Of a stretch of 64,000 bases of DNA, positions 782-32,861 are shown in pieces (within the stretch, counting starts at the first letter, position 1; every line of letters starts with the position of its first letter). Below the pieces are notes generated by a model that was given only the letters and a program-made list of their open reading frames with translations, was not told the DNA's origin and ran no database searches. The position numbers and the translations under genes were made by a program. This DNA comes from Candidatus Woesearchaeota archaeon (lineage in GTDB: Archaea > Nanobdellota > Nanobdellia > SCGC-AAA011-G17 > JACPIM01). Where the stretch lies: contig JBDRGP010000029.1 in assembly GCA_043817645.1 (NCBI GenBank), positions 58,226-122,225 of the forward strand, written 5' to 3'.

Positions 782-1795
782 TCAAGTTTCAACTTCAATT
801 AGACCATCTTTAACCTTAAACTTAACATCCAAGAACTTCTTAATAATCTCAATATTGGTTTTAGCATGCTCTGTCATCTCTAAAAACTTAAACTTTCCAC
901 CTTTACCAAAAGCCAAAAAAGGCAATAACTGATCTAACATAAACCCATCCACCGTTGCTTTACCATCTACATACCTTAACAATCCCTCGGCACATTCCCT
1001 ACCAATAACCTCGCTTTGTTTACCTCTCTCGCCTACAACATCATAACCAACCAAACTATCTTCAAAATCAAACTTACACAAAATACCAGAACCAGGACAA
1101 ACAGAATCAACATACTCTACTTTCCGTCTAATAGGAATATCAGAGAACTTTCTTCCAATTAAACCCACAGCAGATTGAGATTGTCTTTCAGCAACATTAG
1201 CTTTTTTTAAATGTGAAGATGCAATAGAAAATAAACCAATGCTATTTAACTCTCTTCTCTCAATCAAATCCAAATATTCTAATTTAGTTTTTTTAATTTT
1301 AGAATCAACAATAGCACCGCCCTTAGGATAAAATCCATTTCTTAAAACCTCTATATTATTTTTTAATCCAATTTTTTCTAATAAAGGTAAAAAAACTTCT
1401 TGTAAGTATAAGATGCTCGGAGCATACAAATTCCAAGTACCACCACCAATTATTCTTACATTTAAATCACTATTCAAACTAGCTAAAAAAAGAGTTTGCA
1501 ATATCAATGCTGTAGAGCCAGCAGTTCTAACCTGAATTTTTAATTTCTTTTTTGTTATCTTGCCAGGGATAAATTTCAATTCTTTGCTATACAACTCGTC
1601 CCCAGAAACCTCAGCATCGCACAATTTTTTAACAGATTTAATAGCCTGTAAATGTTGTTCCCTTAATCCGGGATTCTCTCTTTTTGCTCTGATATTTTTA
1701 ATTGTAAAAGATTGTTGAGTTAAGGCTGAGAGGCCTAAGGATGTCCTAAGTATTTGTCCTCCACCTTCCAAAACGCTTCCATCAATAGTTATCAT
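782..1795 (-). CDS. rtcA: RNA 3'-terminal phosphate cyclase
   Basis: 337 aa. The N-terminus MITIDGSVLEGGGQILRTSLGLSALTQQSFTIKNIRAKRENPGLREQHLQAIK matches the RtcA signature. Confidence 0.9.
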   Translation of the reverse strand: MITIDGSVLEGGGQILRTSLGLSALTQQSFTIKNIRAKRENPGLREQHLQAIKSVKKLCDAEVSGDELYSKELKFIPGKITKKKLKIQVRTAGSTALILQTLFLASLNSDLNVRIIGGGTWNLYAPSILYLQEVFLPLLEKIGLKNNIEVLRNGFYPKGGAIVDSKIKKTKLEYLDLIERRELNSIGLFSIASSHLKKANVAERQSQSAVGLIGRKFSDIPIRRKVEYVDSVCPGSGILCKFDFEDSLVGYDVVGERGKQSEVIGRECAEGLLRYVDGKATVDGFMLDQLLPFLAFGKGGKFKFLEMTEHAKTNIEIIKKFLDVKFKVKDGLIEVET

Positions 1796-3381: not shown

Positions 3382-3792
3382 TTAGACACGACGTCCACGC
3401 CTAAAGTGCTTTTTTCTGCAACCATCAGTAGGAGTAGCAGTAACATCCTCAATAACACCAATTCTTAAACCCATTCTAGATAAAGCTCTTATAGCGGCTT
3501 GTGCACCAGGACCAGGATTATTAGGCCCATTATGCCCGCCAGGAGCTCTAATTTTAATATGAATAGCATTCACACCTTTCTCAAGAGCAGCCTCTCCTGC
3601 AATTTTAGCAGCATTTGTTGCAGCAGTAGGAGAACTTTCTAATCTATGTGCTTTAACAACCATGCCGCCAGAGGCTTTCGCTATTGTTTCAGAACCTGTA
3701 ATATCCGTAATATGGATTATACTATTATTATAACTGGCATAGATATGACAAACTCCCCATCTCATTGGTCTTTGCTCTTTTTGAAATACCAT
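3382..3792 (-). CDS. rps11: 30S ribosomal protein S11 (uS11)
   Basis: [110 protein letters not shown] is the canonical uS11. Confidence 0.9.
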
Positions 3793-3865
3793 ATCAAAAA
3801 TCTGCGAATATTTGTTTATAAACTTTATGAAAACCTTTAAAAATGAATTTATCTTTATTCAGAGA

Positions 3866-3964
3866 AGCAGAGTAGAACAGAATTGCCTTAAAGGTAGTGT
3901 TCAATCAGGAGTGTTCGCTGGGCTCATAACCCAGAGGTCGTTGGTTCAAATCCAACCTCTGCTA
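3866..3964 (+). tRNA. Initiator tRNA-Met (anticodon CAT, 3925-3927) with an apparent ~24-nt insertion in the D-loop (non-canonical intron)
   Basis: Folded by hand. The acceptor is agcagag/ctctgct with an A1:U72 pair. The D-stem is gaac(3875-78)/gttc(3913-16). The anticodon arm is ctggg-CTCATAA-cccag, with the GGG:CCC pairs typical of archaeal initiator tRNA. The T-arm is gttgg-TTCAAAT-ccaac and the discriminator is A. 34 nt lie between the D-stem halves, where 8-11 are expected. Confidence 0.65.
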
Positions 3965-3970
3965 GCGAAT

Positions 3971-4002
3971 CCAGGAGTTTTACTACTCTTGGATTTTTTT
4001 TA
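3971..4002 (+). terminator. Hairpin (ccaggag...ctcttgg) followed by a T9 tract immediately 3' of the tRNA
   Basis: The hairpin has a 7-bp stem with one G:U. A T-run follows, as is typical of archaeal termination signals. Confidence 0.45.
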
Positions 4003-4078
4003 TTTACTTTTTGCCATTCTCTAAATTTTTTAATGTGCTTCGACTGCCTAAATTTAATAATTCTTATTGTGATACTTT

Positions 4079-4962: not shown

Positions 4963-5223
4963 ATGGAAATCAAAAAGAAAGCCTGGCCAGAATTATTCCA
5001 AGCTGTTTTAGAAGGAAAAAAGAAATTTGATCTTAGATTGGCAGATTTTGAATGCGCTCCAGGAGATACACTAATTCTTGAAGAATGGGATCCAGATACT
5101 AAATCCTACACAGGAAGAAAAATAGAAAAGAAAATAACCTATATCCTTAAAACAAAAGACCTAAAATTTTGGCCTAAGGAAGATATAGAAAAACACGGAT
5201 TTCAGGTCATGTCTTTTGAATAA
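4963..5223 (+). CDS. DUF3850 / ASCH-PUA-like small RNA-binding-fold protein
   Basis: 86 aa. WPELFQAVLEGKKKFDLRLADFECAPGDTLILEEWDPDTKSYTGRKIEKKITYIL matches the conserved DUF3850 pattern (WPEYFEAV..GKKTFE.R..D..F.VGD.L.L.EY). Confidence 0.6.
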   Translation: MEIKKKAWPELFQAVLEGKKKFDLRLADFECAPGDTLILEEWDPDTKSYTGRKIEKKITYILKTKDLKFWPKEDIEKHGFQVMSFE

Positions 5224-5227
5224 TATT

Positions 5228-5370
5228 CAAGTCTTACCAGCAATACAATTAGCACATAAACTTCTTTCTCTACTAAAGCACAAATCACACACTAAAGACC
5301 CACAGCGTATACAACTATTCTCACCTATATTCTTACCACACGCAATACAGATTTTAACCTGCTCGACCAT
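5228..5370 (-). CDS. Small zinc-ribbon protein (four CxxC pairs), not in the ORF track
   Basis: The reverse-strand translation is MVEQVKICIACGKNIGENSCIRCGSLVCDLCFSRERSLCANCIAGKT (47 aa). Confidence 0.4.
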
Positions 5371-5414
5371 ATAATTTCATAACAGTTATATACTATTTAA
5401 TCCTTTCTTTTCGT

Positions 5415-6263
5415 ATGTCTCAGGACGTAATATTTTACTATGTAAAGGTATTTCCAAAACTAAAGAAATTCCTAAAAAACAGGGAAATAGCCACCATTAT
5501 GAAGCTAAAAGACACTGAAATAGTAAGAAGAGGCTCAAATCACCCTCCTTTATACATAAAAGACCTAAAAAAAATCAACAAAAAGTTCCAGGAACTAAGA
5601 AAAGGCAACATCCACCTAAAAGACATAGAATCCCAATTGTCCAATATCCAAATAAAAATTTGGCAATATTTCGTTCCTAGAAAACTCATAGAGCTACATT
5701 ACGCAGTCAATCAAGAACACCCAAATAAACCCTTAGAAAGAGTATATTTTGACATAGACAGAAAAGACATTCCAGCAGAAAAAGCACAATTAGTAGCCCT
5801 AAAATTAATAGAAACCATAAAAAAAGATAAAACCTTCAGATTAGAGTATAAAATATTTCCTATGTGGACAGGAAACTCCTTCCATATATACCTTTTATTA
5901 AAAAAGAAAATTCCTCATTCTTTTTATGAAAAAAACTTCCATGTAGATATAAACCACCAAAAAGACTCCTTTACTGGAAGATGGGCTCTTAAAATAAACA
6001 AAGAACTAAAAAACATTAAAGTAGTAGCAGGCCATCAGAAAAAACAAGGCTATATCAACATAGATCCTTCACAATCACCATCAGGTAAAATTTCTCGTTC
6101 TCCCCTTTCCTTATACATAAAAAATTATTCTTCAATAAGGGGTATTGCCCTCCCCTTAACCATAGAAGACTTAAAAAATAAAAACCTAATAAAAGAATTA
6201 AGGGGTTACACTATAGAAAAAGTTATAAAAAATCTCAATAAACTAGCTAAAAAATTACCATGA
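5415..6263 (+). CDS. Archaeo-eukaryotic primase (AEP) catalytic-subunit-like protein (PriS-like)
   Basis: 282 aa. It has a motif I DxD (RVYFDIDRKD), a motif II SGxxxH-like (MWTGNSFHIY) about 40 residues later, and a motif III hD (YINIDPS). The spacing is consistent with PriS. Confidence 0.5.
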   Translation: MSQDVIFYYVKVFPKLKKFLKNREIATIMKLKDTEIVRRGSNHPPLYIKDLKKINKKFQELRKGNIHLKDIESQLSNIQIKIWQYFVPRKLIELHYAVNQEHPNKPLERVYFDIDRKDIPAEKAQLVALKLIETIKKDKTFRLEYKIFPMWTGNSFHIYLLLKKKIPHSFYEKNFHVDINHQKDSFTGRWALKINKELKNIKVVAGHQKKQGYINIDPSQSPSGKISRSPLSLYIKNYSSIRGIALPLTIEDLKNKNLIKELRGYTIEKVIKNLNKLAKKLP

Positions 6264-6652
6264 CCACCTTAACAATAAAACACATCAATGTAACTAATTT
6301 CAAACCAAAAGAGATTAGAGCACAATTAGAGATAGGATTTGATAAGGGAGACAAACCCCAAACCATAAATAAAGAATATCTCTTAAAAAATCCAGAAGAA
6401 CTTCTAACACAAATATTTTTAGACATAAAATCAAAAGACAGAGTAATAATCGATGATCCAACTTTAGACCCGGTAGAAAAATTAGAGATCTATTCTCCGA
6501 TTATTATAAAAGATGAAGAGCAAGTAGAAGCAAAAATCTATCAGTTCATAAAACAATTATGTGAAAAAGCAGCGCATATAAAAAACACAAGAGACGCTAA
6601 AGTACATATGAAATTATTTGATGAGTTTAAGACTGCTTCTTTGCAGATATAA
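6260..6652 (+). CDS. Hypothetical protein translationally coupled to the AEP primase (possible small primase partner)
   Basis: 130 aa, overlapping the primase by ATGA. No recognisable family. Confidence 0.4.
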   Translation: MTTLTIKHINVTNFKPKEIRAQLEIGFDKGDKPQTINKEYLLKNPEELLTQIFLDIKSKDRVIIDDPTLDPVEKLEIYSPIIIKDEEQVEAKIYQFIKQLCEKAAHIKNTRDAKVHMKLFDEFKTASLQI

Positions 6653-6691: not shown

Positions 6692-7660
6692 ATGATATGC
6701 CTATCTTTAGAAGGGACCGCCCATACGGCAGGGTGTGCAATAGTAACAAGTAAAGGAAATATCCTATCAGATATTAGGGATATGTACACTAAAGAAACAG
6801 GAGGAATAATCCCATCAGAAGCAGCACAGCATCATAAAAAAGTATTCCCCGGATTAATTAAAAAAGCAATAAAAGAAGCAAATATTAAAAAAATAGACTT
6901 AGTGGCTTATTCAAAATCACCAGGACTTCCACCATCACTAAAAGAAACCCTAAATGCAGCAAAAGATATAGCAAAAGATCTAAATGCACCATTAATCGGT
7001 GTAAATCATTGTATCTCTCACCTTTCATCTGCGCATTTCTTCACAAAAACAAAAAATCCCATATACGTTTTTGTTTCCGGCGCCAATACACAAATAATTT
7101 CTTTAGAGGGTGAAAGATTTAGGCTACTAGGAGAATGTATTGACATGGGTTTAGGAAACGCCTTAGATAAGTTTGGTAGATCTATAAACCTAGGTTTTCC
7201 AGCAGGCCTAAAAATAGAAGAATTGGCAAAAAAAGGAAAATACATAGAACTACCTTATACAATAAAAGGAATGGACTTATCTTTCTCAGGCATAATCACA
7301 TCAGCAATTGACAAATTTAAAAAAGGAGCTAAAAAAGAAGATCTCTGTTTTTCAATACAAGAAACATTATTTGCAATGCTAACAGAAGTTACAGAAAGAG
7401 CATTAGCGCATACAAGAAAAAATGAAGCGGTTATAATCGGAGGAGTGGCGGCAAATAAAAGACTTTCAGAAATGCTTTCAATAATGTGTAGAGAAAGAAA
7501 TGCTAAGTTTTATGCAGTTCCTTTAAAATATTCTGGAGATAATGCTGCGATGATCGCTATACAAGGAATCTTAGAATACAAAGCAGGAAACCGAACAAAA
7601 CATCCGGACATAGAACCATATCAAAGAATAGATGAAATAAAAGTTAGTTGGAAATACTAA
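6692..7660 (+). CDS. kae1: tRNA N6-adenosine threonylcarbamoyltransferase Kae1 (TsaD family), not fused to Bud32
   Basis: 322 aa. It starts MICLSLEGTAHTAGCAIV and includes NAPLIGVNHCISH; the fold is ASKHA, Kae1-type. Confidence 0.9.
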   Translation: MICLSLEGTAHTAGCAIVTSKGNILSDIRDMYTKETGGIIPSEAAQHHKKVFPGLIKKAIKEANIKKIDLVAYSKSPGLPPSLKETLNAAKDIAKDLNAPLIGVNHCISHLSSAHFFTKTKNPIYVFVSGANTQIISLEGERFRLLGECIDMGLGNALDKFGRSINLGFPAGLKIEELAKKGKYIELPYTIKGMDLSFSGIITSAIDKFKKGAKKEDLCFSIQETLFAMLTEVTERALAHTRKNEAVIIGGVAANKRLSEMLSIMCRERNAKFYAVPLKYSGDNAAMIAIQGILEYKAGNRTKHPDIEPYQRIDEIKVSWKY

Positions 7661-13277: not shown

Positions 13278-14156
13278 GTGCCTAATTATAGCATGAAAGA
13301 TGCTATAAAATGTAAACATTGTTCAAGTTCGAACTTTTGCAAGAAAGGATTTAGAAAGACAGATTATCGAGGGAAAATTCAAAAATATTATTGTAAAAAC
13401 TGTAAGAGATTCTTTACAAATGATGAGGGGTTTTATAGAATGAGATTTAATCCTAAAACGATAACCATGTCTGTTGATATGTATTTATCAAATCTATCAT
13501 CAAGAAAGATGAGAAACCAATTAACAAGGCACTTCTCGATAAAAGCCAGTCACATGACTATACTAGACTGGGTTAGAAGATATAGCTTGAAAGTTCATAA
13601 GTTTGTTGAGAACTTAGGTTACAATCTTGGAAATCATTTTTATGCAGATGAAACGGAGATTAATAGATTAGGACACAGAGATAATTTCTGGGCTTGTGTT
13701 GATTGGGACACAAGAATGATAACAGGAATACATTACTCTGTTGCTACAAATATAAAAGAAGCAACAGTTTTCATACAGAAATCAGTTAGCAAAGGAAAAC
13801 CAAAATACATTCAAACAGATTCGGCTCAGTTTTACCCGAAAGCGTTCAAGAAATTATTTTATTCAAATAAAATTGGTGGCTTGGTAGTAGAGCATAAAAT
13901 ACAAAATGTTAGAAAAACTAAGATACATAACTATAAGATAGAAACCGTTTTCATGAAAATAAAAGATAGAGTCCATGATTTTAGGGGACTAAAGGCCTTA
14001 TGGTCTGCTCCAATAATCATGACTGGTTTAACAATACAGCATAATTTCATAGAACCTCATTGTAATAAACAAGAGTTTCCTTGTAACCTTGCTGGAGTTG
14101 ATTTAGGTTTAAAAGAAAACAGATGGTTGGATTTAATAAGGATGAGTTCACGATGA
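13278..14156 (+). CDS. IS6-family transposase (archaeal type with N-terminal zinc finger)
   Basis: 292 aa. The N-terminal CKHCSSSNFC...CKNCKRF is a Zn finger. The DDE region includes ADETEI, and length and organisation are typical of archaeal IS6. Confidence 0.7.
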   Translation: MPNYSMKDAIKCKHCSSSNFCKKGFRKTDYRGKIQKYYCKNCKRFFTNDEGFYRMRFNPKTITMSVDMYLSNLSSRKMRNQLTRHFSIKASHMTILDWVRRYSLKVHKFVENLGYNLGNHFYADETEINRLGHRDNFWACVDWDTRMITGIHYSVATNIKEATVFIQKSVSKGKPKYIQTDSAQFYPKAFKKLFYSNKIGGLVVEHKIQNVRKTKIHNYKIETVFMKIKDRVHDFRGLKALWSAPIIMTGLTIQHNFIEPHCNKQEFPCNLAGVDLGLKENRWLDLIRMSSR

Positions 14157-15283: not shown

Positions 15284-16471
15284 TTGATTGTTTTCATAAA
15301 TTCGTATTCTAGAGATTTTAATAGTTATAACTTTATTAAAAATCCCAAAAATAGTTTCCCCAAAAGTGGTCTAACCGTCAGAACGAAAACATTTAAATAT
15401 GCCAAAGTCTTTTATGAGTTTATGGAAAAAAGAGTGGTATTCCCAAAAGGGAAACAAAGGGAGTTTTTAGTCTCTTCAAGAAAAGAACTAAAACTAACCT
15501 GGCCGGAATTTGCTGAAAAAGTCGATACAAAAAGAAAAACTCTAGAAAAGGCCTATAGATATGAATATTGTTCGATGCCATATGGGGTTTTTTCTAAAAT
15601 AGTTAATGAAAGAAACATCAATAAAAAGAGACTTATTAGAGATTATAATATCAAAATAGTAAAAGGAAGTAGATATGGTGCAATTGGAAGGAAGGTGTTA
15701 GGAGAAAAAAGAGCGAAATTAGGCAATATCAACCTTTTATTTGAAAATTCTATACATCCATTTAACACTAGCGTTATAAAATTAAGCAAATATGATGAAA
15801 TTAAGAGAATAAAATTTCCAAATAAATTAACTCCAGAATTAGCTGAAGAAATCGGCATGCATATAGGAGACGGTTTTTTATCCAAAAGAAGGAACGAATA
15901 TCGTTTAAAGGGGAATAAAAATAACGAAAAAGATTACTACAAATACTTCATCAAAAAGCTTTACAAGACTTTGTTTAATTTAGATATTAATCTAAAAGAA
16001 TATGAATCGACATATGGATTTGAAATAAGCTCAAAAGGTCTCTGGACATTTAAAAATAAAATTTTGGGTATTCCATCAGGGAAAAAAGATGATATAGATT
16101 TGCCCGCAATTATAAAAGTGAATGACAAAGATATCCTAACTTCATTTATCCGAGGAGTTTTTGACACAGATGGTTGTGTTAACTTCAAAAGTGGATACGG
16201 TCTAAAGGGATATTACCCAAGAATAGAGATAACAATGCTCTCAAAAGATTTAATAGGGAGCATATCGGAGATATTATATGCATTGGGATTAAAACCATAT
16301 AAGCATCAAGATAAACTAGGATATTGGCATATTACTTTAAATGGCTATGAAAGATTTGAAAGATATAATAAATTAATAGGATGGCATAATCCCAAACACT
16401 TAAGAAAGATAAAAAAATGGAAAAAACAATATCCAAAATTAGGAAAGGATGTAATGGTAGGGGTAGTGTAG
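15284..16471 (+). CDS. Free-standing LAGLIDADG homing endonuclease (two LAGLIDADG motifs) with a ~180-aa N-terminal extension
   Basis: The motifs are IGMHIGDGFL and IRGVFDTDGCV. The last ~5 codons and the stop run into the 5' end of the tRNA-His gene. Confidence 0.7.
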   Translation: MIVFINSYSRDFNSYNFIKNPKNSFPKSGLTVRTKTFKYAKVFYEFMEKRVVFPKGKQREFLVSSRKELKLTWPEFAEKVDTKRKTLEKAYRYEYCSMPYGVFSKIVNERNINKKRLIRDYNIKIVKGSRYGAIGRKVLGEKRAKLGNINLLFENSIHPFNTSVIKLSKYDEIKRIKFPNKLTPELAEEIGMHIGDGFLSKRRNEYRLKGNKNNEKDYYKYFIKKLYKTLFNLDINLKEYESTYGFEISSKGLWTFKNKILGIPSGKKDDIDLPAIIKVNDKDILTSFIRGVFDTDGCVNFKSGYGLKGYYPRIEITMLSKDLIGSISEILYALGLKPYKHQDKLGYWHITLNGYERFERYNKLIGWHNPKHLRKIKKWKKQYPKLGKDVMVGVV

Positions 16472-16546
16472 CCTGGTTAGTTTTTACCCAGAAAACACGC
16501 AAGTCTGTGGAGCTTGAGATCGCGGGTTCAAGTCCCGCCCCTTACC
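16456..16546 (+). tRNA. tRNA-His (anticodon GTG, 16507-16509) with encoded G-1 and an apparent ~14-nt insertion in the D-loop
   Basis: Folded by hand. G-1 pairs with C73. The acceptor is gtagggg/cccttac, and the D-stem is gtgt(16466-69)/acac(16495-98). The anticodon arm is caagt-CTGTGGA-gcttg, and the T-arm is gcggg-TTCAAGT-cccgc. 25 nt lie between the D-stem halves, and the insert can form a gtttt/aaaac hairpin. Confidence 0.6.
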
Positions 16547-16568
16547 CGTTTTCAAAAAAGAGGTCAAA

Positions 16569-17825
16569 ATGAAACTTGAAAGATGTAAAGGAACAGTAGA
16601 TTTTCCACCAGAACAAAAAATAGCAAGAGAAGAAATAGTAAGTACCCTAACAAAAGTATTCAAAAAATACGGTTTTGACCCTTTAGAAACCCCAATTTTA
16701 GAGAGATATGATACCTTATCAGCAAATTACGCAGGAGGCGCAGAAATCCTTAAAGAAACCTTCCGATTGAAAGACCAGGGTAATAGAAGTTTAGGATTAA
16801 GATATGACCTAACAGTTCCTTTAGCGAGATTTATTGCAATGAATCCTCAAATTGCATTCCCATTTAAAAGATATCAAATAGAAAAAGTATTCAGAGATGG
16901 CCCAATAACAAGAGCAAGAATAAGGGAATTCTATCAATGTGACGTAGATGTAGTAGGAAGCAGATCTCTATCATACGATGCTGAACTAATCCAACTTTCT
17001 CTAGATGCCTTAAAAGCTCTAAAATTAAAATGCATCATAAAAGTAAATAATAGAAAATTACTAAATGAAATTGTAGATTACGCAGGAATAAAAAAGGATC
17101 CCAATTCAGTAATCTTAGTCATAGACAAATTATACAAAATTGGCAAAGAGGGCGTTGAAAAAGAATTAAAAGAACTAGGGCTAAAAGAAGAGCAAATTAA
17201 AAAAATCACAAAAACTATCTCAGTAAAAGGCACTAACAAAGAAAAACTAGAAAAAATCTCAAAAATAATAAACAAAGAGGGCATAAAAGAACTCAAAGAA
17301 GTTTTAAAATATTTCGAAAAAGATGTTGAATTTGATCCAACATTGGCAAGAGGCCTAGCTTACTACACAGGAACGGTTTTTGAAATTGTCTTAAAAAATA
17401 AAGACTTGGGCTGCAGTGTTGGCGGCGGTGGAAGATATGACAAAATGATTGGAAGTTTTGTTGGAAAAGGAGAAATTCCTGCTACAGGCATCTCATTTGG
17501 ATTAGAACCTCTAAGTTACTGCATAAGCAAATTAAGAAAAGGAAAAAAGACAAATACAGAATTATTCATAATACCTATAAAAACCACAGAAAAGTCCTTA
17601 AAAATTGCTAAGAAATTAAGAGATTCCAATATCAACACAGACATAGACCTAAATAATAGAAACATCTCAAAAAACCTAAATTATGCAAATAAAAAAGATA
17701 TCCCTTATGTTCTATTCATAGGAGAAAAAGAACTAAAACAAAAGAAATTCAAATTAAGAAACATGATCACAGGAAAAGAACAATTATTCACATTAGAAAA
17801 ACTAACAAAATATCTAAAAAACTAG
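16569..17825 (+). CDS. hisS: Histidine--tRNA ligase
   Basis: 418 aa. It has the class II aaRS motifs and RGLAYYTGTVFE; GGGRYD is present, plus a C-terminal anticodon-binding domain. Confidence 0.9.
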   Translation: MKLERCKGTVDFPPEQKIAREEIVSTLTKVFKKYGFDPLETPILERYDTLSANYAGGAEILKETFRLKDQGNRSLGLRYDLTVPLARFIAMNPQIAFPFKRYQIEKVFRDGPITRARIREFYQCDVDVVGSRSLSYDAELIQLSLDALKALKLKCIIKVNNRKLLNEIVDYAGIKKDPNSVILVIDKLYKIGKEGVEKELKELGLKEEQIKKITKTISVKGTNKEKLEKISKIINKEGIKELKEVLKYFEKDVEFDPTLARGLAYYTGTVFEIVLKNKDLGCSVGGGGRYDKMIGSFVGKGEIPATGISFGLEPLSYCISKLRKGKKTNTELFIIPIKTTEKSLKIAKKLRDSNINTDIDLNNRNISKNLNYANKKDIPYVLFIGEKELKQKKFKLRNMITGKEQLFTLEKLTKYLKN

Positions 17826-31440: not shown

Positions 31441-32307
31441 ATGGTGAATATCGGTCTTCTTGCTAACAAAACTAGACACTATAGTACCAGAAGGTTAATT
31501 GAAGAAGGAAAAACTCTAAATCAAAACATAATAAGTATAGGAACAGGAAACATATGCCTTTTTGTTGATAATCAATTAAGATACACCATCCACAGAAAAA
31601 AATCACCAATAGACGTGATATTGCCGAGATTTGGAGACAGACATTGGAATTTCTTTATGACAGTACTAAAACATTTTGAAAGAACAGGCATTCCATGCAT
31701 TAACACAAGCGAAACGATAGATATATGCAAAAATAAATACCTAACAAGTCTAGCTTTAAAAAAGAAAAGAGTCCCACAACCAAAATGCGCACTTGCTTTC
31801 TCAGAAAAAGATATGTTGACCTATATTAAAAAAATGGAAAAACCTCTAGTACTTAAATTAATAGATCAATCATTTGGCCAGGGCGTTTCAAGGATTAATG
31901 ATGACATAGAAGCAGAAGATTGGCTCGAAACAGTCCTAAGTTTCAAATCCCCAATTTACATTCAAGAATACATCCCGCATCCTGGAGAAGATTATAGAAT
32001 ATTAGTTATAAATCATCAAGTTGTTGGTGCCATGAAGAGAAAAGCAAAACCAGGTGAATGGAAAGCAAATATTGCTCTAGGAGGAACTCCTTGCCCTTAC
32101 AGACCAACTGAAGAAGTAAAAGAAATTGCAATTAAGAGCAGTGAAGCTGTTAAAGCAGGTGTATGTGGAGTAGATTTAATGATTCATGAAGGAATTCCAA
32201 AAGTCATAGAAGTCAACCACAACCCGCAATTTAAAGGTCTTGAACAAGTTTCTAAGAACATAGCCAAAGAAATAATGAAATACACCGTTAGGAAAGCAAA
32301 AAGATGA
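31441..32307 (+). CDS. RimK-family ATP-grasp ligase
   Basis: 288 aa with an ATP-grasp fold. The C-terminal motif is MIHEGIPKVIEVNHNPQFKG. Confidence 0.65.
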   Translation: MVNIGLLANKTRHYSTRRLIEEGKTLNQNIISIGTGNICLFVDNQLRYTIHRKKSPIDVILPRFGDRHWNFFMTVLKHFERTGIPCINTSETIDICKNKYLTSLALKKKRVPQPKCALAFSEKDMLTYIKKMEKPLVLKLIDQSFGQGVSRINDDIEAEDWLETVLSFKSPIYIQEYIPHPGEDYRILVINHQVVGAMKRKAKPGEWKANIALGGTPCPYRPTEEVKEIAIKSSEAVKAGVCGVDLMIHEGIPKVIEVNHNPQFKGLEQVSKNIAKEIMKYTVRKAKR

Positions 32308-32861
32308 CAAAACGGGTTTTTATGGTTCACGGTTGGGAAGGTTATCCGGAAAATCATTGGTTTCCATGGTTAAAAAAAGAACTAGAAACAAAAGGATTTG
32401 AAGTTTTTGTTCCAGCTATGCCAGATACAGATCACCCAAAAATGGGAGCATGGTTAGAACACTTAACAAAAATTACTAGAGCCCCAGATAAAGACTGTTA
32501 TTTTATTGGCCATAGCTTGGGTTGCATAACAATTCTTAGATACCTTGAAACTTTACAAGAAAATCAAAAAATTGGTGGCGTTATTTTTGTTGCTGGTTTT
32601 ACTTCCAATTTAGGGTATGAAGAACTAGAAAGTTTCTTTACAAAACCAATCAATTGGGAAGAAATAGAATCTCATTGTAGAAAGTTTGTTGCTATCCATT
32701 CTGATAACGACCCTTATGTTTCATTACATTATAGAGATTTTTTCAAAGAAAAGCTGAATGCTAAAATCTTTACCGAGCATAAAAAAGGTCACTTTAGCGG
32801 AAGTGAGGGCATTAAAGAACTCCCAGTAGTCTTAGATGAATTATTAAAGATGGCTAAGTAA
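32304..32861 (+). CDS. YdeN/RBBP9-family alpha/beta serine hydrolase
   Basis: It has VFMVHGWEGYPENHWFPWL and the nucleophile GHSLGC. 185 aa, with an ATGA overlap with the ligase. Confidence 0.65.
   Translation: MTKRVFMVHGWEGYPENHWFPWLKKELETKGFEVFVPAMPDTDHPKMGAWLEHLTKITRAPDKDCYFIGHSLGCITILRYLETLQENQKIGGVIFVAGFTSNLGYEELESFFTKPINWEEIESHCRKFVAIHSDNDPYVSLHYRDFFKEKLNAKIFTEHKKGHFSGSEGIKELPVVLDELLKMAK

Follow-up and report, generated by a model that had tools for sequence, protein, structure and literature searches.

A 64-kb window of archaeal DNA, the whole stretch that was analysed, carries at positions 3866-3964 of the forward strand what is very probably a functional gene for the initiator tRNA-Met, with a D-loop that is split between tRNA positions 15 and 16 by a 24-nt intron of the EndA type. 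Related genes with an intron at the same position were found in a number of other genomes, and the pairing within the precursor, its conservation among these relatives and the way in which a tRNA scanner handles the gene are used below to evaluate this assignment and its alternatives.

Gene layout and initiator identity

Read from its letters, 3866-3964 (+) is an archaeal initiator tRNA-Met gene made up of a 5' exon, a 24-nt intron and a 3' exon. Its sequence can be written as AGCAGAG TA GAAC (34 nt) GTTC G CTGGG CTCATAA CCCAG AGGTC GTTGG TTCAAAT CCAAC CTCTGCT A, and the parts of the gene and its flanks are the following:

3830-3833 (+): BRE-like A-rich run, preceding the TATA box
3836-3843 (+): TATA box, TTTAAAAA, at -30 to -23 relative to the 5' exon
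3866-3880 (+): 5' exon, tRNA positions 1-15, with the acceptor strand AGCAGAG, U8 and A9, the D-stem strand GAAC, and A14 and G15
3875-3878 (+): D-stem 5' strand GAAC, which in the precursor serves as the 5' side of the central helix (4 bp) in the splicing motif
3881-3904 (+): intron, 24 nt (AATTGCCTTAAAGGTAGTGTTCAA), between tRNA positions 15 and 16
3905-3964 (+): 3' exon, tRNA positions 16-73, with the remainder of the D-loop (TCAGGAGT), anticodon arm, variable loop, T-arm, acceptor strand and discriminator A
3913-3916 (+): D-stem 3' strand GTTC in the 3' exon, the mature partner of GAAC
3925-3927 (+): anticodon CAT, given by ARAGORN for both the spliced and the unspliced sequence
3967-4001 (+): terminator-like 12-bp hairpin followed by a T-run, one site found compared to 0.3 expected

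The acceptor stem consists of 7 bp, all of them Watson-Crick and including A1:U72. The strand in the 5' exon pairs perfectly with 3957-3963, and this stem has a probability of ~1.0 in the partition function calculated for the 99-nt precursor, which folds at -31 kcal/mol (z = -2.6 compared to shuffles). Three consecutive G:C pairs closing the anticodon stem (29-31:39-41) are an identity element of initiator tRNAs, and G29-31:C39-41 are present here (CTGGG CTCATAA CCCAG), with the anticodon CAU in the 7-nt loop CTCATAA. The A1:U72 pair, for its part, is a hallmark of the archaeal initiator (PMC5393177). In the window it is formed by A3866 and T3963, with a probability of 0.89 in the ensemble, and all 29 members of the family described below start with AGC and end with GCTA.

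A first-pass annotation of this DNA had proposed an initiator tRNA-Met on the basis of A1:U72, the GGG/CCC anticodon stem, the CAT anticodon and the TTCAAAT T-loop, and all of these elements were located where it had placed them. The D-stem halves GAAC and GTTC are indeed 34 nt apart in the sequence, and the D-loop insert, which had been put at ~24 nt, comes to exactly 24 nt (3881-3904) when intronless orthologues are used as the reference. It had further been claimed that a perfect cloverleaf is obtained once the insert is removed, and splicing in silico, that is, deletion of the intron, does yield a flawless 75-nt cloverleaf with the anticodon CAU. This 75-mer was compared with an nhmmer profile of 7 intronless archaeal initiator tRNAs, where it obtains 56.8 bits over profile positions 2-75. 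The CCA end is not encoded.

The two exons can also be considered separately. The 3' exon matches both the Rfam tRNA model and a covariance model, R1, which was built from 7 intronless initiator tRNAs. The 15-nt architecture of the 5' exon recurs in 28 relatives and in the intronless orthologues, and its occurrence by chance can be estimated at ~6e-6 from the base composition of the window. The 13-mer to which this value refers has to supply the D-stem strand, T-R at 8-9 and an acceptor strand that pairs perfectly, and to lie no more than 60 nt upstream of the 3' part.

When the 60 nt upstream of the 29 genes are aligned, T-T-T-A-W-A-A-A is found fixed at -32 to -25 in nearly all of them and is preceded, again in nearly all, by an A-run at -39 to -35. 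Given the distance at which archaeal TATA boxes are known to lie, the BRE and TATA elements at 3830-3843 would constitute the promoter of the gene, and their spacing is the one expected for a transcription start near the mature 5' end. The hairpin and T-run at 3967-4001 are likely to act as the transcription stop. A weak match to the Rfam SpF41 sRNA covering 3864-4004 (30.4 bits versus a gathering score of 52) was dismissed, as it resembles a tRNA-like T-arm plus terminator.

Intron boundaries and splicing motif

The intronless orthologues from Woesearchaeota and Micrarchaeota read ...GGGCAG/YCAGGAGTGCCC... (general form ...CAG/YCAGGAGTG..., with the slash at the junction), and the window reads ...GAACAG/TCAGGAGTGTTC... 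after deletion of 3881-3904, which is the same junction. This settles the junction unambiguously, exon 1 ending at G15 (3880) and exon 2 starting at U16 (3905), and the predicted spliced junction is ...GUAGAACAG joined to UCAGGAGUGUUCG... The elements around the two sites are:

3879-3881 (+): 5' splice-site bulge A14-G15-a, 3 nt, with the predicted cut at 3880/3881
3882-3898 (+): intron hairpin (outer helix h'), ATTGCCT / TAA loop / AGGTAGT, from folding and covariation
3899-3902 (+): intron GTTC, 3' strand of the central 4-bp helix, a mimic of the true D-stem 3' strand
3903-3905 (+): 3' splice-site trinucleotide a-a-U16, with the predicted cut at 3904/3905, an open junction and not a closed bulge

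In the precursor ensemble, GAAC at 3875-3878 pairs with the intron GTTC at 3899-3902 with p = 0.88, compared to 0.09 for its mature partner at 3913-3916. For G15 and the base that opens the intron, the probability of being unpaired is 0.97. Six pairs of the intron hairpin have probabilities of 0.81-1.0, and the closing A:U pair has 0.43. At the other end of the intron, a-a-U16 is unpaired with a probability of at least 0.95, and the "AA" ahead of the 3' exon is at least 90% conserved in the family. Both predicted cuts fall two bases into their trinucleotide, which is the symmetric geometry of bulge-helix-bulge substrates.

The 3' site differs from the 5' site in how it is closed. Inspection of the sequences by eye revealed no exon-side helix there; the CAGGAGU that follows a-a-U16 has unpaired probabilities of 0.76-0.92, and U8 and A9 find no partner in it. 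A strict hBHBh' (3-4-3) motif was rejected for this reason, and the motif at 3875-3905 is a bulge-helix-bulge of the relaxed HBh' type, the two classes being used as defined in PMC3239211. Since the closing helix is missing at the 3' site, an EndA of strict specificity is not expected to cut there. The bulge-helix-bulge that the first-pass annotation had anticipated is thus present within 3875-3905, with its 5' site in a proper 3-nt bulge, but not in the strict form.

Relatives and covariation

A scan of 185,579 species-representative genomes for exon 1 followed, at a distance of 10-40 nt, by exon 2 up to and including the anticodon loop gave 43 loci. Twenty-eight of them are initiator tRNA genes with an insert of 21-38 nt exactly at 15/16. 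Another 13, caught via a chance upstream anchor, are uninterrupted initiator tRNA genes and serve as controls (one is bacterial, one is truncated and one, L028, has an insert in the T-arm). In the remaining two, L020 and L026, the intron lies one or two positions upstream of 15/16. The 28 intron-bearing relatives come mostly from metagenome-assembled genomes labelled Woesearchaeota or Nanoarchaeota, and one is labelled Aenigmatarchaeota. A few carry the labels "Methanosarcinales" or "bacterium", which are doubtful because the G+C content is 31-36%, compared to 55% in genuine Methanothrix loci.

We have also scanned 241 million metagenome records for the subfamily of the window, in which the D-stem strand is GAAC, allowing a gap of 0-30 nt. 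One further gene was obtained, with a 22-nt intron at the identical site, and no intronless allele of this subfamily was present in these records; all four members of the subfamily have the intron. The 15/16 intron is very probably inherited, at one position, across a large Woesearchaeota/Nanoarchaeota clade. Homologues of the window proteins that neighbour the tRNA gene were not found in the related loci, and synteny is uninformative here.

The covariation was analysed with an ungapped pseudo-alignment of 29 genes, in which each intron was represented by its first 7 and last 12 bases between exon 1 and exon 2. The first base of the insert is nearly always A, and its last two are AA, preceded by four bases that can pair with the 5' strand of the D-stem. 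The complementarity is retained through several different sequences, namely GAAC with gttc; GGGC with gcct, gccc, gtcc or gctc; GGAC with gtcc; and GAGC with gctc or gttc. Across the 29 genes 96.6% of the cells of this central 4-bp helix are paired, with double changes between GC and AU at two pairs (11 and 12), and for the intron hairpin the value is 80.5%, with double changes at all six tested pairs. When the partners are slid by 1-3 columns as a control, the pairing falls to 35-50%, and none of 500 shuffles reaches the observed covariation score.

The mature D-stem is 100% paired in the family. The exon strand equivalent to GAAC thus covaries with both the intron strand and the mature strand, which means that it has two alternative partners, one before and one after splicing. 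Unconstrained folding of the segment from the D-stem to the intron gives the arrangement of 4 bp, a 3-nt bulge and a hairpin in most relatives. Model R1 aligns end to end (positions 1-75) to all 23 relatives that have a single intron, with 75-84 bits, and the surplus bases fall in the D-loop.

Genomic surroundings

The tRNA gene lies near the gene for ribosomal protein S11 at 3382-3792 (-). An RNA 3'-phosphate cyclase is encoded at 782-1795 (-), and the open reading frame at 6692-7660 appears, from its translation alone, to specify a Kae1-like protein. These archaeal neighbours and the G+C content of the window, 33.5%, fit a DPANN-type archaeon.

Apart from the initiator gene, a single tRNA is called in the window, a "tRNA-Gly(ccc), 91 nt" at 16457-16547. 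This gene was found to be a tRNA-His(GUG) at 16456-16546 that is mis-called as Gly, and it has a 15-nt D-loop intron at 16479-16493. Without the intron it yields a perfect cloverleaf, in which G-1 is encoded (16456) and position 73 is C, and R1 aligns with the gene end to end, placing the extra bases in the D-loop. It is situated directly upstream of the gene for histidyl-tRNA synthetase. The wrong label is caused by the D-loop intron, as is the case for the initiator gene, and short D-loop introns are accordingly seen in both tRNA genes that are visible in the window.

Proposed splicing pathway and alternative explanations

On the basis of the established framework of archaeal tRNA splicing (PMC4090602, PMC6379350, PMC5829648), the following pathway can be proposed. 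Transcription would begin at A1 or immediately upstream of it, ~25 nt downstream of the TATA box (3836-3843). In the precursor, as folding and covariation show, the D-stem strand GAAC pairs not with its mature partner but with the decoy GUUC supplied by the 3' end of the intron. The resulting 4-bp helix, with the A14-G15-a bulge and the intron hairpin on the 5' side and the unpaired a-a-U16 on the 3' side, makes up the relaxed HBh' motif. A splicing endonuclease (EndA) of broad specificity would then cut after G15 and before U16, and a ligase of the RtcB type would join the exons, both steps being modelled on known archaeal tRNA splicing. The freed GAAC could now pair with GUUC at 3913-3916 to form the D-stem of the canonical 75-nt tRNA, and CCA would be added after splicing.

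The enzymes were searched for in the sequence at hand. With the M. jannaschii EndA as query, a sequence validated against PDB 1A79 (E = 8e-111), phmmer --max and tblastn searches of the 76 open reading frames gave no EndA in the 64-kb window; the best weak match, at 32304-32861, is a serine hydrolase. Pfam scans of 20 window open reading frames detected neither EndA nor RtcB, and the 43 related loci gave no tblastn matches to EndA.

One could argue from this that the gene is dead, with the 24-nt insertion inactivating the initiator tRNA and a functional copy being located elsewhere in the genome, as only 64 kb of the genome are in view and no splicing enzyme is encoded there. We consider this very improbable. 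Another 29 loci, from distinct species, have their insertion at this same site; compensatory changes maintain both the decoy helix and the hairpin of the intron, the two exons are perfect and the promoter motif is conserved. In addition, the intron is present in every member of the GAAC subfamily, with no intronless allele in the metagenome records. A functional gene that is spliced accounts better for these observations.

A slightly more remote option is that the insert is retained, so that the mature tRNA would have an enlarged D-loop with an extra hairpin. Nothing positive speaks for it. The 5' strand of the D-stem is captured by the insert (p = 0.88), which means that the D-arm, the U8-A14 interaction and the core contacts of G18/G19 could not form. 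Selection moreover keeps the geometry of the 4-bp helix and 3-nt bulge together with the conserved "AA", features that a splicing endonuclease needs and for which the core of a tRNA has no obvious use, while the length of the insert varies between 21 and 38 nt. Removal of the insert by splicing is, again, the preferred interpretation.

Equally hard to sustain is the gene that the scanners report, namely an uninterrupted 72-nt tRNA-Met with the upstream complementarity being a leader or due to chance:

3893-3964 (+): 72-nt tRNA-Met called by ARAGORN, Rfam and model R1, with its 5' end inside the intron

All three programs choose it, with 38.2 bits for Rfam (above the gathering score) and 64.0 bits for R1, which ranks it first in the window and loses three of the four D-stem pairs. 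We attribute the preference of R1, which scored the unspliced sequence, to the cost of a 24-nt insertion. As a tRNA, the 72-nt form is poor. It has G1.U72 in place of A1:U72, a U3.G70 pair, a U6.U67 mismatch and a D-stem of only 3 bp that includes a G.U pair. Its cloverleaf has an energy of -12.1 kcal/mol, compared to -24.0 kcal/mol for the spliced 75-mer, and when folded freely to minimum free energy it does not adopt a cloverleaf. Against the initiator nhmmer profile it obtains 50.4 bits, aligned only from position 14, and its first 10 nt fail to align.

The context of this call points in the same direction. The acceptor stem of the scanner call has a probability of 0 in the ensemble of the 99-nt precursor, and the TATA box would be at about -53 relative to its 5' end. 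The upstream exon, for which a chance match has the probability of ~6e-6 given above, is conserved in all relatives, and no fold of the 72-nt kind is seen in them: ARAGORN finds none of the 28 when they are unspliced and 23 of the 28 after splicing in silico, the other five being interrupted again in the T-arm or variable region. Since none of the unspliced relatives is found, the 72-nt call is an artefact, a coincidence of the window's own intron sequence. These results also bear on two points of the first-pass annotation. Its expectation that scanners fail on such genes holds, as ARAGORN mis-bounds the window gene and misses every unspliced relative. An alternative fold without an insert, which it had named as evidence against an intron, is reported at 3893-3964, but this fold is degenerate and absent from the 28 relatives.

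Finally, two other kinds of intron are rejected. A self-splicing group I or group II intron would need a catalytic core of hundreds of nt, compared to the 24 nt of the insert, and no Rfam intron was matched, either at the gathering score or with E<=1. A canonical 37/38 intron conflicts with the intact anticodon loop CTCATAA and with the location of the insert at 15/16.

Comparison with known systems

Introns in the D-loop and relaxed HBh'/hBH motifs are known to be cleaved by EndAs of broad specificity (PMC3239211, PMC5829648), and non-canonical introns of the D-arm with relaxed motifs are well documented (PMC5829648, PMC3241643, PMC3239211, PMC12397907). DPANN EndAs with an extra L3 loop go together with many disrupted tRNA genes, and some DPANN tRNA sets could not be completed by prediction (PMC5829648); the window gene is the kind of case that was anticipated in that work. 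For non-canonical introns, tRNAscan-SE 2.0 has a routine whose training set came from Crenarchaeota/Euryarchaeota and Thaumarchaeota (PMC8450103). D-loop introns of the non-canonical kind, and their connection with the DPANN variants of EndA, are already established, and the present results do not overturn the current understanding. A 15/16 intron conserved among the initiator tRNAs of DPANN archaea was not described in the part of the literature that was covered.

A further-reaching proposal, which we regard as possible though rather doubtful, is that the 15/16 intron is old, clade-wide and obligatory in the only initiator tRNA gene of a large DPANN branch (Woesearchaeota/Nanoarchaeota and possibly Aenigmatarchaeota), its site having been kept for a long time while the sequence of the hairpin turned over. 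If this were true, all translation initiation in that branch would depend on an EndA that cuts a relaxed, half-open motif, and the intron might be maintained as a maturation checkpoint or as a protection from integrating elements. The dependence of an essential tRNA with a single function on relaxed-motif splicing also leads to the prediction that these organisms have an EndA of broad specificity, and the 30 natural substrate variants could be used for testing how EndA recognizes relaxed motifs.

The main value of the result is practical and concerns the annotation of tRNA genes in DPANN genomes. As a clade-specific marker the 15/16 intron appears to be undescribed, and it is invisible to ARAGORN (0/28). 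Genomes of the clade may for this reason seem to lack an initiator tRNA or carry one that is drawn incorrectly, and mis-called tRNAs with introns affect the tRNA complement and the completeness estimates of DPANN metagenome-assembled genomes.

Compared to the canonical 37/38 intron with its hBHBh' (3-4-3) motif, the window intron likewise has a 4-bp helix in which the exon pairs with bases from the intron's 3' end, a 3-nt bulge, and cuts located two bases into each trinucleotide, and the enzymes are presumed to be identical. It differs in that the 3' bulge lacks the exon-side helix and that the helix borrows a strand of the D-stem, not of the anticodon.

The closest counterparts are the Methanopyrus kandleri pre-tRNA-Glu(UUC), with an intron at 20b/21 (HBh'), and the Aeropyrum pernix pre-tRNA-Thr(UGU) (PMC5829648, PMC3241643), which also have short D-loop introns spliced by proteins. 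As in the window, one site is in a 3-nt bulge beside a 4-bp helix and the other is without a closed bulge, so that an EndA of broad specificity is needed. The window intron is, unlike these, in an initiator tRNA-Met, at 15/16 and in a DPANN/Woesearchaeota-like genome, and, far from being sporadic, it occupies one fixed site in at least 29 genomes.

ARMAN-2 and other DPANN archaea with EndAs of the epsilon2 or L3-loop type (PMC3239211, PMC5829648) likewise have small genomes with many non-canonical or multiple introns, and they share with the window gene the relaxed hBH/HBh' motifs and the incomplete tRNA sets given by tRNA finders. The published examples from ARMAN-2 interrupt the T-loop, at 59/60 and 53/54, whereas the window intron is at 15/16.

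The permuted tRNA-iMet of Thermofilum pendens, disrupted at 59/60 (PMC3218864), is similarly an essential initiator gene that needs bulge-helix-bulge processing and for which scanners return a low-scoring partial call. In contrast to that gene, the exons in the window are collinear and contiguous, and the disruption is a simple cis-intron.

Direct repeat in the initiator tRNA gene

The initiator tRNA-Met gene carries a 7-nt direct repeat, AGTGTTC, at window positions 3896-3902 and 3910-3916. The first copy is made up of the end of the intron hairpin and the decoy GUUC, that is, the intronic segment that pairs with the 5' strand of the D-stem in the precursor, and the second copy of the end of the D-loop and the real D-stem strand. 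The splicing motif accounts for the four nucleotides at the core of the repeat. The other three nucleotides are peculiar to this window, and the spurious 72-nt scanner call (3893-3964) is due in part to them.

D-loop intron in tRNA-His

Window 16456-16546 (+) holds a gene that ARAGORN reports as a 91-nt tRNA-Gly(ccc). This assignment was rejected, as the gene is that of tRNA-His(GUG), split by a 15-nt intron in the D-loop:

16479-16493 (+), tRNA-His intron, AGTTTTTACCCAGAA, 15 nt, at about position 20a/21; its boundary can slip by 1 nt inside an A-run

Once the intron is taken out, a perfect cloverleaf for tRNA-His(GUG) is obtained, with G-1 encoded at 16456 and C73 as the discriminator. In the window, Rfam recognises the T-arm alone. 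The splicing motif has 4 bp, CUGG:CCAG, with UUA and AAA on its two sides. The 5' site is effectively in a loop, and the motif is hBH/BHL-like. The surroundings of the gene are as follows:

13278-14156, IS240-type DDE transposase ORF, 2 kb further upstream
15284-16471 (+), ORF of 395 aa with a LAGLIDADG_3 domain (homing-endonuclease family), its 3' end falling within the first 15 nt of tRNA-His
16569-17825 (+), histidyl-tRNA synthetase gene, directly downstream

Surroundings of the initiator tRNA gene

782-1795 (-), RNA 3'-terminal phosphate cyclase (RtcA) gene, 2 kb from the intron-bearing tRNA
3815-3822, palindromic TTTATAAA, 23-30 nt before the start codon of S11, which lies at 3792 on the minus strand
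4963-6652 (+), small ORF cluster shortly downstream of the tRNA: one ORF is DUF3850/ASCH-like, one has a weak likeness to LigD primase-polymerase (5415-6263), and one of 130 aa is unannotated

The RtcA linkage is not conserved among the related loci, and its proximity is therefore probably a coincidence. The palindrome would be well placed to give the ribosomal protein S11 a promoter of its own, divergent from that of the tRNA, with a leaderless mRNA. The ORF cluster could be a mobile-element remnant.

Related initiator tRNA loci

Six of the related loci (L002, L025, L033, L038, L039 and L044) have the intron and are labelled "Methanosarcinales" or "bacterium"; their G+C content is 31-36%, and their exons are of the usual Woesearchaeota type. 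The genuine Methanothrix loci L009 and L021 have 55% G+C and a gene without the intron. The taxonomic labels given to the bins of the six look wrong.

In L004, L012, L024, L025, L028, L029 and L038, one or two more inserts (about 22-60 nt) are found in the variable-loop/T-arm region, either added to the 15/16 intron or replacing it, and L012 seems to hold three inserts. In two genomes labelled "uncultured archaeon" (L020:3364-3470 and L026:4128-4233), the initiator tRNA is interrupted by ~30 nt, in the pattern AGCGGGGTAGAGCA|aggtaat...ccctcga|AGCCTGGA, with the helices arranged differently; the L020 gene also has an aberrant 3' end. These two inserts sit 1-2 positions upstream of 15/16 (about 13/14-14/15), which suggests that insertions recur on the 5' side of the D-loop.
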